A stretch of DNA of 64,000 nt from Candidatus Aminicenantes bacterium (GCA_046483285.1 JAWODN010000119.1:6015-70014), one strand, 5' to 3'. Positions 20,160 through 26,802 are shown, counted from the stretch's first letter. Translations and numbers: made by a program. The notes: generated by a model not told the origin, from the letters alone.

Positions 20160-21548
20160 ATGAATAAAATCAGGCAAAATTCCAATAATGTGGGGTACAT
20201 ACAGTCTATCCGCTCCAGTGTGGTGGATGTTCTGTTTCCTGATAAAGTCCCCGGCATCAATCACCGTTTAAATGCCGGTGAAAACGGCCGGGTGGCCATC
20301 GAAGTGATGACTCACCTGGATGCCAATTTGGTCAGAGGAATCGCCCTTCATCCCACTCAGGGGTTATCCCGGGGCGATAAAGTGGAAGACACCGGCCGGC
20401 CCATCCAAGTGCCTGTGGGAAAAGAGCTGGCCGGCAGAGTATTTAATGTTTTCGGGGAAACCATTGACGGGGGTGATCCGGTGGAAACCAAAATTTTACG
20501 TTCCATCCATCAGGAGCCGGTTCCCCTTTCTCAACAAACCGCCACCGAAGAAATTTTTGCAACCGGGATCAAGGCTATTGATGTGCTGGCGCCTTTGGAA
20601 CGGGGAGGGAAGGCCGGCATGTTCGGGGGCGCCGGGGTCGGAAAAACCGTTCTGATCATGGAAATGATCCACAATATGGCCAGCCACCATGAAGGAATCA
20701 GCATATTTTGCGGAATAGGGGAACGGAAGCGTGAAGGAGAGGAACTCTACCGGGAAATCAAGGAAGCTGAGGTTTTAGACCAGGCGGTCTTGATTTTCGG
20801 GCAAATGGATGAACAGCCGGGAGCGCGGTTCAGGGTGGGTCATACCGCCCTGACCATGGCGGAATACTTCCGTGAAGACAGGAAACAGGATGTGCTGTTG
20901 TTGATAGATAATATTTTCCGTTTTGTTCAGGCCGGTTCGGAAGTGTCCGGTTTGCTGGGCCAGATCCCTTCCCGGGTGGGTTATCAACCGACTTTGGCCA
21001 CCGAGCTGTCGGAGCTTCAAGAACGCATTTGCAACACGGCTTCCGGAGCTATATCCTCCATTCAGGCGGTCTATGTCCCGGCGGATGATTTCACGGACCC
21101 GGCCGCGGTCCATACCTTCGGTCACTTGTCCGCCTCCATCGTGCTTTCCCGGAAACGGGCCAGCCAGGGATTATACCCGGCCATCGACCCGCTTGAATCG
21201 AGATCAAAAATGCTGTCCCCTCATATCGTGGGGGAGAGGCATTATCGAATCGCCCGGGAGATGAGGAGCACCCTGGCGGAATATGAAAATTTGAAAGACA
21301 TTATCGCCATGTTGGGGATTGAGGAGCTTAACAGGGAAGATCAGAAAACCGTATACCGCTCCCGCCGGCTGGAACGTTTTCTGACCCAGCCCTTCTTCAC
21401 CACCGAACAGTTCACCGGTCACGAAGGAAAGCTGGTCAAATTGGAGGACGCCTTGAACGGATGCGAACGGATACTGAATGATGAATTTTCCGACTTTCCG
21501 GAAAAATCCCTTTATATGATCGGCGGAATCGAAGAGGCGGAAAAATGA
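20160..21548 (+). CDS. atpD: N-type ATPase beta subunit
   Basis: Walker A 'GGAGVGKT' and the F1-beta signature '[14 protein letters not shown]' are present. It is the first gene of a D-C-Q-R-B-E-F-A-G operon. The start was taken at MNKIR. Confidence 0.9.
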
Positions 21549-21931
21549 AAATAAAGGTCTTGCTTCCCACACATGTTTTTTTGGAAGAGGAAACCGGTAA
21601 AATTTCCGGGGAGGCATTGAACGGGTCATTCACTATACTGCCCCGGCATGTGGATTTTGTCACCGCGCTTCAAGCGGGGTTGTTGTTTTTTGAAGGAGAG
21701 AAAGGCGAAACCTTTTTGGCTGTGGATAAAGGGGTTTTATTGAAAGCCGGAGATGAAGTTCTGGTTTCGGTCCGGGACGCGGCCAGGGCGGAGAATCTTG
21801 AGGATGTCCGAAAGAAAGTGGAAGAGCGGTACAGGGAATTGAATGAGAAAGAAAAAAAATCCCGTTCTGTTCTGGCCGGTTTTGAATCTGATTTTTTGAG
21901 AAGATTTCTGGAATTGGGAAAAAATGCCTGA
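21545..21931 (+). CDS. atpC: N-type ATPase epsilon subunit
   Basis: 128 aa, a beta-sandwich plus helical hairpin. It is translationally coupled to atpD (4-nt overlap). Confidence 0.8.
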
Positions 21932-22268
21932 TAACAATCCGGGAAAAAAACACCAGGAAAGACAAAAAGATATTTCCAGCCGTATCGGGAAAAAAGCAAA
22001 AAGAAAACTGGAAGCCCGGAAACATAAAGAAGAAGAGAGCATCTGGTTCGGCCTGGGTATGTTCGGTTTGGTGGGCTGGGCGGTCTCTATACCCACCGTG
22101 ATCGGAATCGCCGTGGGCGTCTGGCTGGATTCGCGGTACCCGGGACCGGTTTCCTGGACATTGACCTTTTTGGTCATCGGCATTGCTCTGGGATGCTGGA
22201 ACGCCTGGTACTGGGTTTCCAAGGAAAGAGACCGCATCCAAAAAAAAGACGGGAATGATGATGAATGA
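21924..22268 (+). CDS. atpQ: N-ATPase accessory membrane protein AtpQ (AtpI/AtpZ-like)
   Basis: 114 aa with a basic N-terminus and two TM helices. Its position between epsilon and the a subunit is diagnostic of N-ATPase operons. Confidence 0.6.
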   Translation: MPDNNPGKKHQERQKDISSRIGKKAKRKLEARKHKEEESIWFGLGMFGLVGWAVSIPTVIGIAVGVWLDSRYPGPVSWTLTFLVIGIALGCWNAWYWVSKERDRIQKKDGNDDE

Positions 22269-24393: not shown

Positions 24394-25924
24394 CAACCCC
24401 CATGCTTCTCTAAACCAAATCCTGGAGCAGATGGAATCGGATGTGTCCCTCTCCATGCAGGATCATCAAGCTGAAATCTCCACTCGTGAAACCGGCCGGG
24501 TGTTCAGCGTGGGGAGAGGCGTGGCCAGGATCAGGGGGTTGTCTGGTGTCAAATATGAAGAGCTCCTGCAGTTTCCCGGACAGAAGATGGGGATTGCTCT
24601 TAATCTGGATAAAGATGAAGTGGCTGCGGTCCTGCTGGATGAATATGAAAACATCAGCGCGGGAGATGAAGCCAGAAGGACCGGAAGGGTCATGGATGTT
24701 CCGGTGGGGGAAGAGCTGATCGGCAGAGTGGTGGACCCCCTGGGAAGGCCTCTTGATCGAAAAGAACCCATACGAACGCGGGAAAGATTGCCGGTTGAAA
24801 GAAAAGCCCCCCCGATCATGCATAGAGCCCCGGTAGAAGTGCCGCTGCAGACCGGGCTCCAGGTGGTGGATGCCTTGATTCCGGTCGGCCGCGGCCAAAG
24901 AGAGCTGATCCTGGGGGACCGCCAGATTGGGAAAACGGCTGTGGCATTGGATACCATCATCAATCAAACCGGCAAAGACATGATTTGCATATACTGCAGC
25001 ATTGGAAAAGAGAGCGGCACCGTTGCCAAAGTGATTTCGGATTTGAAGCGGTTCAAGGCCATGGAATATACCATCGTGGTCGCCGCTCATGGAGAAGAAC
25101 CCCCGGGATTTAATTTTATCGCCCCTTATGCGGCCACCAGCATGGCGGAATATTTCATGGAAAAGGGGGAGGATGTTCTCATTGTCTATGATGATTTGAC
25201 CCGCCATGCCCGCTCCTACCGGGAATTATCCCTGCTGTTGCGCCGCCCCCCGGCGAGGGAAGCGTACCCAGGGGATATTTTTTATATCCATTCCCGGTTA
25301 TTGGAACGGTCAACCCATTTAAGAGAAGATTACGGAGGGGGTTCGTTGACGGCCCTTCCCATCATTGAAACCCAGGCTGAAAATATTTCCGCTTATATTC
25401 CCACCAATCTGGTGTCTATCACGGACGGACAGATTTATCTGTCTCCGAAATTGTTCGGAGAGGGCATTTTGCCCGCCGTGGATGTGGGGAAATCGGTGTC
25501 CAGAGTCGGCGGCAAGACTCAGCTTCCAGCCTACCGGGAAGTGGCCGGCGATCTCCGGCTTTCATATTCCCAGTATAAAGAGCTGGAAACATTTGCCCGG
25601 TTCGGCACCCGTCTGGATGAGGAAACCCGGAAGACTTTAGAAAGAGGGAGGAGGGTCCGGGAAGTTTTGAAGCAGCCGCAGTATCAGCCTATCCCCATGG
25701 CTGAACAGATGGCGGTGCTGCTGGCGGTTTCCGAAGGATTGCTGGATGCCGTTTCCTTGCCCAAGATCGAAGAAGTGAAGACACGTATCCGGAATAATAT
25801 CCGGGAACGGGTTCCGGATGCGGCGCGGCGTATGGAAGAAGGCGAAAAATTGAGCGAAAAGGATAAGAATGAAATTATATCTCAAATCCAGGATATCATC
25901 GCCGATCTTCAGGAGAGCGAATAA
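24368..25924 (+). CDS. atpA: N-type ATPase alpha subunit
   Basis: 518 aa with Walker A 'GDRQIGKT' and typical F1-alpha blocks. Confidence 0.9.
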
Positions 25925-26802
25925 TGGAGCAATTGGAAACCTTGAGGAGAAGACTCCAAAGCGCCCGGGACCTTCACTCGGTGGTAAAAACCATGAAAAC
26001 CCTGGCCGCCGTCAATATCCGGGAATATGAACAAGGGGTGGAGTCGCTGAAAGATTATTTCCGCAGTATTGAAATGGGGCTGCAGATTCTCATGCGGAAT
26101 AAACCGGAAAGAATCCGGCTGGTTTCTCCTGAAAAGGAAGAGAAGCTGGGAGCGGTGGTCTTTGGTTCGGAACAGGGAATGGTGGGACAGTTCAACGAAA
26201 AAATCGCTGAATTCGCATGGAAACAGTTGAATGAGATGAAAGTTGAAAAGAAAAACCGGACCGTTATGGCGTTGGGCGGAAAACTCATTGGAAGGCTGGA
26301 GGCCTTGGGAGTTGAGGTTGAAGAGGCCATCCATGTTTTCGGTTCTATGGTGGATATCAATGAGGTCAACCAAGAAGTTTTGCTGAAAGTTCAAGAGTGG
26401 CGCCTGGAAAAAAAAGTAAGCCGGATCATTTTATTTTATAACCGTCCGGCTTCCGGGACCACATACACCCAGGCCATGCGCAAGCTGCTTCCTTTGGATG
26501 AGGAATGGCTTAATGACCTCGAAAGCAAGAAATGGCCCACTCATATGCTGCCTGCTTTTTTCATGGATTGGGATAAACTGTTTTCCGCTTTGATCCAGGA
26601 ATTCTTTTTTGTGACATTATATCAGGCTTCCGTGGAATCCCTCGCCAGCGAAAACGCCAGCAGGCTGGCTTCCATGCAGGCGGCGGAAAAAAACATCCAG
26701 GAGCGCCTGGATGAGCTCAGCCTTAAATATCAGCAGCAGCGCCAGCAATCCATAACCGCTGAGCTGCTGGATATCGTCTCAGGGTTCGAAGTGCTGTCGT
26801 GA
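25924..26802 (+). CDS. atpG: N-type ATPase gamma subunit
   Basis: 292 aa with 'ASENASRLASMQAAEKN' near the C-terminus, typical of gamma. It is the last ATPase gene. Confidence 0.85.
   Translation: MEQLETLRRRLQSARDLHSVVKTMKTLAAVNIREYEQGVESLKDYFRSIEMGLQILMRNKPERIRLVSPEKEEKLGAVVFGSEQGMVGQFNEKIAEFAWKQLNEMKVEKKNRTVMALGGKLIGRLEALGVEVEEAIHVFGSMVDINEVNQEVLLKVQEWRLEKKVSRIILFYNRPASGTTYTQAMRKLLPLDEEWLNDLESKKWPTHMLPAFFMDWDKLFSALIQEFFFVTLYQASVESLASENASRLASMQAAEKNIQERLDELSLKYQQQRQQSITAELLDIVSGFEVLS

Follow-up and report, generated by a model that had tools for sequence, protein, structure and literature searches.

A 64-kb stretch of DNA (64,000 nucleotides [nt]) from a Candidatus Aminicenantes bacterium (GCA_046483285.1, JAWODN010000119.1:6015-70014), referred to below over its full length as the window, carries on its plus strand, at positions 20160 to 26802, an operon whose identity as an N-ATPase is practically beyond doubt. 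N-ATPases are a distinct subfamily within F-type ATPases (Dibrova et al. 2010, PMC2881411). The observations as a whole are best explained by an intact atpDCQRBEFAG operon, encoding a Na+ pump, that was acquired by an ancient transfer and has since been inherited vertically at a fixed site, a reading to which we give a probability of roughly 80%. The system itself is already known; what is new is its host lineage and its clearly chromosomally fixed context.

Identity of the operon

NCBIfam holds separate curated models, with their own cut-offs, for the “alternate F1F0 ATPase,” which is the N-ATPase. All nine products of the operon scored above these cut-offs, as listed here with the coordinates, strand, and length in amino acids (aa) of each gene.

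20160-21548, plus strand: atpD, N-type F1 beta (catalytic) subunit, 462 aa; TIGR03305 (alt_F1F0_F1_bet), 793.9 bits, cut-off 752
21545-21931, plus strand: atpC, epsilon subunit, 128 aa, PF02823 also matched; TIGR03166 (alt_F1F0_F1_eps), 117.9 bits, cut-off 100.1
21924-22268, plus strand: atpQ, small membrane protein (“gene 1”), 114 aa, PF09527 (ATPase_gene1); TIGR02230, 133.4 bits, cut-off 46.7
22255-22563, plus strand: atpR, N-ATPase hallmark membrane protein, 102 aa, PF12966 (AtpR), E value 5.9e-24; TIGR03165, 82.3 bits, cut-off 55.5
22560-23276, plus strand: atpB, Fo a subunit (stator, ion channel), 238 aa; TIGR03306 (altF1_A), 325.9 bits, cut-off 302.1
23279-23554, plus strand: atpE, c subunit (rotor ring), 91 aa; TIGR03322 (alt_F1F0_F0_C), 160.1 bits, cut-off 130.85
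23557-24393, plus strand: atpF, long b subunit fused at its C terminus to a delta-like domain, 278 aa; TIGR03321 (alt_F1F0_F0_B), 250.7 bits, cut-off 224.7
24368-25924, plus strand: atpA, N-type F1 alpha subunit, 518 aa; TIGR03324 (alt_F1F0_F1_al), 809.4 bits, cut-off 750.5
25924-26802, plus strand: atpG, gamma subunit (central stalk), 292 aa; TIGR03323 (alt_F1F0_F1_gam), 326.1 bits, cut-off 282.35

The seven subunits shared with F-type enzymes passed N-specific cut-offs of the “exception” or “hypoth_equivalog” kind. Matches of the nine products to their expected families had E values from 1e-23 to 1e-243, far beyond chance. PF12966 and PF09527 were found independently by Pfam, and it is these two families, AtpR and ATPase_gene1, that define the N-ATPase in the description by Dibrova, Galperin and Mulkidjanian (2010, PMC2881411).

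The other features associated with the subfamily are present as well: the gene order atpD-C-Q-R-B-E-F-A-G, AtpQ in place of AtpI, no delta subunit, and a b subunit with a delta-like C terminus. No open reading frame (ORF) for atpH, encoding delta, lies between atpF and atpA, and since these two genes overlap there is no room for one; a Pfam scan found no AtpI of the PF03899 type in the operon. An earlier note on this DNA, made from the sequence alone, had proposed a complete N-type operon distinguished by AtpQ, AtpR, an extended b subunit, and a missing delta. All of this was borne out by the family matches and the atpF-atpA overlap, and the ORF map reproduced the proposed boundaries and gene order exactly.

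The b subunit, at 278 to 289 aa depending on its start, compares with 156 aa in Escherichia coli. Its residues 18 to 148 correspond to PF00430, and its N-terminal half matches the Bacillus PS3 b subunit in the PDB. Toward the other end, residues 189 to 256 match positions 104 to 172 of the OSCP family PF00213 (28.3 bits; cut-off, 22.3), and residues 177 to 258 match a delta chain in the PDB (7p2y_d).

Could the locus be an ordinary, vertically inherited F-type ATP synthase whose operon has been rearranged? General F-type equivalog models do match (TIGR01039, for example, gives atpD 629.8 bits against a cut-off of 462.85), relatives are publicly annotated as “F0F1 ATP synthase subunit beta,” and the F-type operon of Bacteroides (L142, 8019-15391, a Bacteroides finegoldii record in PLSDB) has the N-like order atpD-C-x-B-E-F-H-A-G but with delta, so that gene order alone is not diagnostic of an N-ATPase. 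However, wherever a subunit is covered by both kinds of model, the N-specific one scored higher, AtpR is present while delta is absent, and trees split the operon from F-type references at 100/100. AtpD is 69.5% identical to the N-ATPase of a cyanobacterial plasmid versus only 47 to 54% identical to F-type betas. We regard the F-type alternative as already refuted.

Integrity of the nine genes

Nine co-directional ORFs fill the span, and in the ORF list for 17 to 30 kb no gap could accommodate another gene. All nine are uninterrupted. Adjoining genes overlap by 1 to 26 nt or are spaced by 2 nt, the arrangement that would be expected of a translationally coupled operon.

Three of the starts called for a choice. 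The atpD ORF opens at a GTG at 20070, and the ATG at 20160 gives a product of 462 aa, the same length as that of relatives. The atpR ORF opens at 22183; from the DNA, its start was taken as a triple ATG at 22255, overlapping the end of atpQ. The atpF ORF opens at a TTG at 23524 (289 aa), and the GTG at 23557 is most likely the true start; it lies 2 nt past the atpE stop and is preceded by a GGGGG ribosome-binding site.

Direct reading of the translations showed that alpha and beta retain their P-loops and catalytic Glu and Arg residues, which in AtpD are found in GGAGVGKT and GERKREG. The stator arginine of the a subunit, R164 (in LAVRLFGN), is invariant in 68 relatives. AtpQ has, by eye, two hydrophobic stretches at about residues 42 to 66 and 76 to 98, of which an automated hydropathy scan gave only the first, and its D69 is invariant in 75 relatives. 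AtpR has three hydrophobic segments, with R51 present in 100% and R82 in 94% of 65 relatives. No chain resembling AtpR was found in the PDB, which leaves AtpQ and AtpR without an explanatory structure. A protein identical to AtpG is encoded on a 6-kb Logan contig (SRR31818007_148749), and exact look-ups with the AtpA and PpsA proteins gave no match.

Phylogeny and distribution

Alpha and beta sequences were placed in a joint neighbor-joining (NJ) tree in which each paralogue roots the other, with 100 bootstrap replicates. The references comprised four F-type enzymes (E. coli, Sinorhizobium meliloti, Acetoanaerobium, and Bacteroides) and the N-type enzymes of Picosynechococcus, Sulfitobacter, Paraburkholderia, and Cereibacter plasmids. 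The window sequences grouped with those of nine Aminicenantes-type loci (L001 to L009; beta, 98/100; alpha, 69/100), and this group was nested within the N clade together with the plasmid copies of Picosynechococcus PCC 7003 and Sulfitobacter (beta, 94; alpha, 75). The F-type references formed a clade of their own (100/100), and the Burkholderia-type betas branched apart on long branches. The earlier note had suggested a phylogeny of AtpA and AtpD as a check on N-clade membership; both fell inside the N clade in this NJ analysis with few F-type references. A tblastn search against PLSDB plasmids gave a bimodal result, with N-type betas at 60 to 70% identity and F-type betas at 47 to 54%; the beta of the Picosynechococcus PCC 7003 plasmid was 69.5% identical and that of Sulfitobacter 61.7%.

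Among GTDB species representatives, the best AtpD matches (77 to 85% identity) came from metagenome-assembled genomes (MAGs) of Candidatus Aminicenantes or Acidobacteriota, a few of whose automatic labels are doubtful. The closest AtpD proteins, 85% identical and from Aminicenantes MAGs, are named Candidatus Aminicenantes by NCBI. The next matches, at 68 to 76%, came from Thermoleophilia, Syntrophales, Desulfobacterales, cyanobacteria, Planctomycetota, Anaerolineales, and others, and the same operon order recurs across many phyla in loci long enough to show it. This distribution is the known patchy, cross-phylum pattern. A literature search returned no account of Aminicenantes rotary ATPases, and Acidobacteriota go unmentioned in one ProAD supplementary file.

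Two unusual arrangements were seen among the fetched loci. In a Candidatus Binatia MAG (JBFWZL010000160.1; L077, 2791-12020), F-type-like atpA and atpG genes, the former 47% identical in product to S. meliloti AtpA, lie directly upstream of an N-type atpD, giving the order ...atpA-atpG-[atpD-C-Q-R-B-E-F-A-G]; this may be a tandem of one F-type and one N-type operon, or the two may be fused and perhaps share atpDC. In six Xenococcaceae or Pleurocapsa-type cyanobacteria (L018, L042, L043, L051, L054, and L071), an N-type atpD (72 to 73% identical to the window gene) stands alone, no further atp gene lying within 10 kb on either side, unlike other loci that extend past atpD. These lone genes may be orphans or parts of widely split operons.

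Genomic context and age of the acquisition

The immediate surroundings of the operon are as follows.

17552-19945, upstream: ppsA, phosphoenolpyruvate synthase
19946-20159, plus strand: ppsA-atpD intergenic region, 214 nt, AT-rich, presumed purely from its position to hold the operon promoter and leader
26799-27545, plus strand: DUF72 gene (PF01904, E value 2.9e-71), a neighbor and not a subunit, whose GTG start overlaps the atpG stop by 4 nt
Downstream, with the DUF72 gene first in a conserved DUF72-polX-ligA group: polX (PolX-PHP polymerase), ligA (NAD-dependent DNA ligase), and fpg (Fpg)

The earlier note had held that the presence of an N-ATPase marks this stretch as accessory, and the corresponding explanation, that the operon belongs to a recently acquired island, deserves consideration. 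N-ATPase operons can move laterally and are found on plasmids (PMC2881411), among the references used here those of Picosynechococcus, Sulfitobacter, Paraburkholderia, and Cereibacter, and outside the Aminicenantes-type clade the nearest relatives of the window operon come from unrelated phyla. Two members of the same operon clade (L008 and L009) have other neighbors, and in three loci with more distant PolX relatives (L088 to L090; 60 to 62% identity) the DUF72-polX pair is kept with no operon upstream. These three were tried as an “empty site” and rejected: the genes upstream are unrelated (an arabinofuranosidase, an NAPRTase, and a glycosyltransferase), so the comparison is not clean.

The composition of the operon argues against recent arrival, as none of four measures deviates. 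GC content is 0.501 versus 0.512 ± 0.036 and GC at third codon positions is 0.573 versus 0.584 ± 0.053 for the 33 other genes of the window, codon-usage distance is 0.108 versus 0.106 ± 0.020 for control blocks of equal size, and tetranucleotide distance is 0.072 versus 0.077 ± 0.009 for control segments. The GC content of N-ATPases is known to track that of the host (Dibrova et al., PMC2881411). Neither an integrase or transposase nor repeats or a tRNA junction mark the borders of the operon, which is flanked by ppsA and the DUF72 gene; the closest tRNA lies at a distance of 6 kb.

Conservation of the site points the same way. The order ppsA, operon, DUF72-polX-ligA is found in L001, with flanking proteins 76 to 85% identical, and again in L005, L006, and L007, with flanks 59 to 75% identical, L007 having an extra PfkB kinase gene after atpG. 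Metagenome contigs L082 to L084 also keep this order, and the DUF72 gene occupies the same position in L001, L081, L082, and L083. The insertion context is identical in relatives whose flanking proteins are only 65 to 85% identical, and the Aminicenantes-type operons form one clade (beta, 98/100).

A recently acquired island is very improbable on this evidence and largely refuted. The claim that the stretch is accessory found no support, given its native composition, its housekeeping flanks, its freedom from mobility genes, and the context kept in relatives; the description of the system as patchy and horizontally transferred stands at the level of phyla, although here the acquisition appears old and fixed. 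Because composition is native, the flanks are housekeeping genes, and gene order is kept down to about 65 to 70% protein identity, the transfer is best placed far back, with later inheritance vertical. The simplest reading would be a single old acquisition in a sub-lineage of Aminicenantes (Acidobacteriota), followed by vertical descent at the ppsA/DUF72 site.

In two Desulfobacterota MAGs, too, ppsA immediately precedes atpD, both genes being on one strand (L015, 5951-9897; L029, 792-4100; compare 17552-21548 in the window). The PpsA proteins are 71% and 66% identical to that of the window, and the AtpD proteins are not sister to the Aminicenantes clade. Either ppsA may at times travel with the operon or the adjacency may be a coincidence.

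The sole clear compositional outlier of the window is elsewhere, at 34754-37161 on the plus strand, where a 6-phosphogluconate-dehydrogenase-like gene and a glucose-6-phosphate dehydrogenase gene have about 0.60 GC against about 0.50. Recent transfer is more plausible for this segment than for the ATPase operon.

Coupling ion

The c subunit carries the two-carboxylate Na+ form of the ion-binding motif, E30 / E63-S64-T65-x-x-Y68. When the c subunits of the fetched loci (68 in all, including a few F-type references) were aligned with that of E. coli, the E...ESTxxY motif was found in 44 of the 68 and in all members of the Aminicenantes-type clade. The two-carboxylate ESTxxY site of the Fusobacterium nucleatum c ring binds Na+. 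Dibrova et al. described such a motif for most N-ATPases (PMC2881411), and under the current rules of ProAD and Mulkidjanian a complete motif is scored as Na+ (PMC11738941). Since the motif in the window is complete under these rules, Na+ is the likely coupling ion.

The competing possibility is an H+-coupled N-ATPase that uses ATP to pump H+ and so serves pH homeostasis, the role that has been proposed in Burkholderia pseudomallei. The N-type c ring of that organism, with 17 subunits, is H+-selective although its sequence had earlier led to a prediction of Na+ (Schulz et al. 2017, PMC5376962). ProAD predicts H+ coupling for 893 of 1807 N-ATPases, about half (PMC11738941), and Na+-binding rings are able to carry H+ at low Na+ (PMC2881411). 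The B. pseudomallei ring, however, lacks the Ser-Thr pair present here: it and the plasmid c subunits of its relatives Paraburkholderia and Cereibacter read E / E-T-M-x-x-Y instead. Together with the Na+ binding of the F. nucleatum site and the Na+ score of the complete motif, this difference makes H+ coupling unlikely, and Na+ remains the prediction that we favor. The helix-1 packing motif also differs, being SxGxAxGxG in the window, AxGxAxAxG in B. pseudomallei, and GxGxGxGxG in the Na+ F-type reference, so the ring size of B. pseudomallei is not transferable.

Proposed mechanism and direction

By analogy with F-type enzymes, ATP hydrolysis at the beta subunits of the alpha3-beta3 head would turn the gamma-epsilon shaft and the c ring. 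Each c subunit would hold one Na+ between E30 and E63, S64, T65, and Y68 and would release it outside as the site passes R164 of the a subunit, so that Na+ would be expelled from the cell. In the stator stalk, a b dimer would hold the head, its delta-like C terminus standing in for part of the missing delta. AtpQ and AtpR would probably take part in c-ring assembly or regulation, a role for the two-Glu ring proposed by Dibrova et al. (PMC2881411), and the buried R51 and R82 of AtpR would pair with the two glutamates of c. The favored reading is a rotary ATPase that translocates Na+ and probably spends ATP to pump it, both ion and direction being predictions.

Direction is the weakest step. N-ATPases normally accompany another ATP synthase, and deletion of the operon in Methanosarcina acetivorans caused no defect in growth or ATP synthesis (PMC2881411); from this “second enzyme” pattern and the silent deletion, we lean toward pumping, and not ATP synthesis, as its net function.

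Two observations concern cation transport near these operons. In L008 (16943-19621) and L009 (about 7035-9411), a P-type (E1-E2) cation-transporting ATPase adjoins the N-ATPase operon, an adjacency that fits a role in cation or ion homeostasis common to the two. The window itself encodes, at 43979-45160 on the plus strand, a member of the Na+/H+ exchanger family (PF00999), which shows that sodium can be handled in this organism by other routes as well.

Whether the N-type enzyme has a partner bears directly on its direction. In Pfam scans of 30 further ORFs and in tblastn searches with F- and N-type alpha, beta, gamma, and delta, no second rotary ATPase was found in the window. The partner of an N-ATPase is usually F-type and sometimes A-type, as in Chloroflexota, Chlamydiota, and Methanosarcina (PMC11738941). 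The earlier note had presumed a canonical F-type enzyme elsewhere in the genome; a separate canonical ATPase is likely by analogy, if not certain, and need not be F-type.

Alternatively, the N-type enzyme could be the only or primary rotary ATPase of this lineage and would then run reversibly as a Na+-coupled ATP synthase/ATPase, not as an auxiliary pump. Such a role has been proposed in T78, a genus of Chloroflexota in which 18 of 20 genomes have an N-type enzyme as the sole rotary ATPase (ProAD, PMC11738941). An operon among core genes, of native composition and syntenic across the sub-clade, is what would be expected of an essential enzyme; all catalytic and coupling residues are intact; and no other rotary ATPase lies in the window. 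Yet 64 kb is about 2% of a genome, and absence from it says little. The ProAD survey of GTDB r202 singled out only T78 as an N-only genus (PMC11738941), N-ATPases being otherwise found beside an F- or A-type enzyme. Moreover, the housekeeping energy genes of the window include, besides ppsA, nuoJ, nuoL, nuoM, and nuoN (8181-13884), which hint at a proton circuit that would normally feed a separate H+-coupled synthase. A sole N-type enzyme is accordingly improbable, and we retain a sodium pump as the preferred account.

The nuo cluster, on the minus strand, consists of complex I membrane-arm genes only, with nuoK presumed to lie in the gap between nuoJ and nuoL. No nuoA-I genes adjoin it; next come, on the opposite strand, a tRNA-Met gene and a gene unrelated to the cluster.

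Several points weigh against the overall interpretation. Consensus scans found no sigma-70-type promoter in the ppsA-atpD spacer and no convincing terminator between atpG and the DUF72 gene, the hits of these scans occurring at no higher frequency than in shuffled sequence. The trees are NJ trees with few F-type references, none of them from Acidobacteriota, and support for alpha is only moderate (69 to 75/100). The only N-type c ring tested biochemically, that of B. pseudomallei, bound H+ in spite of its sequence-based Na+ prediction (PMC5376962). The argument for a pump depends on a second, primary ATP synthase, of which the window holds none, and the B. pseudomallei c17 ring's high ion/ATP ratio would also suit ATP synthesis at low ion-motive force.

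Other features of the window

Two further features lie upstream. An RNase P RNA (class A, 287 bits) at 7718-8079 on the plus strand overlaps the last ~79 nt of an ORF at 6315-7796, also on the plus strand, which encodes a sigma-54-dependent response regulator. At 5055-6206 on the plus strand is a gene for a bacterial archaeo-eukaryotic release-factor-like (baeRF) protein (PF18849, E value 1.5e-49), of families often tied to conflict or defense systems.

Significance

The main value of these findings is correct annotation. Public records of close relatives say plainly “F0F1 ATP synthase.” Aminicenantes are widespread and uncultured, occurring in sediments and the subsurface, and a metabolic reconstruction misled by that label would take the operon for their main proton ATP synthase where a sodium-handling enzyme is more likely. 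The locus is also a clear example of an N-ATPase operon that became a stable, vertically inherited part of the chromosome after an ancient transfer.

Were the enzyme the sole rotary ATPase, fixed in the core genome, T78 would no longer be the one known N-only case, and the “always the second” rule behind the view that N-ATPases cannot make ATP would be contradicted. Complete genomes of this lineage that had no other rotary ATPase would then bear on the open question of ATP synthesis by N-ATPases.

Comparison with known systems

The closest known system is the N-ATPase of pAQ7-type Synechococcus/Picosynechococcus plasmids, Acaryochloris marina, and Methanosarcina acetivorans and M. barkeri. The window operon shares with it the gene order, AtpQ and AtpR, the lack of a delta gene, the long b subunit with a delta-like C terminus, and a c subunit with two Glu residues and ESTxxY, and it belongs to the same clade, with AtpD 69.5% identical to the Picosynechococcus PCC 7003 plasmid copy. 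It differs in its host, an Aminicenantes-type member of the Acidobacteriota, a group not discussed in the N-ATPase literature searched, and in its setting: it is chromosomal, native in composition, and syntenic in its sub-clade, and neither on a plasmid nor visibly inserted.

The N-ATPase of B. pseudomallei is alike in its architecture with AtpQ and AtpR, in a two-carboxylate c subunit (E30 and a Glu in the C-terminal helix), and in Arg164 of the a subunit, but it has E-T-M-x-x-Y where the window has E-S-T-x-x-Y. The AtpD of its relative, the Paraburkholderia plasmid, is only 51% identical to that of the window and stands apart in the NJ tree.

With the F1Fo enzyme of E. coli (atpIBEFHAGDC), the window operon has in common homologous alpha, beta, gamma, epsilon, a, c, and b subunits, the P-loops, the stator arginine, and a rotary mechanism, with AtpD 50% and AtpA 45% identical. 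Unlike the E. coli operon, it has a different gene order, no atpI, no separate delta, the additional AtpQ and AtpR, and a b subunit nearly twice as long, and it falls in a separate clade; its c subunit has a Na+-type site at the columns where E. coli reads I...D-A-I-x-x-I. The Na+ F-type synthases of the Ilyobacter tartaricus and Acetobacterium type share the ESTxxY motif of c, the Acetoanaerobium noterae reference reading Q...ESTxxY, and differ from the window operon in having delta, in having Gln in place of Glu in helix 1, and in belonging to the F clade.

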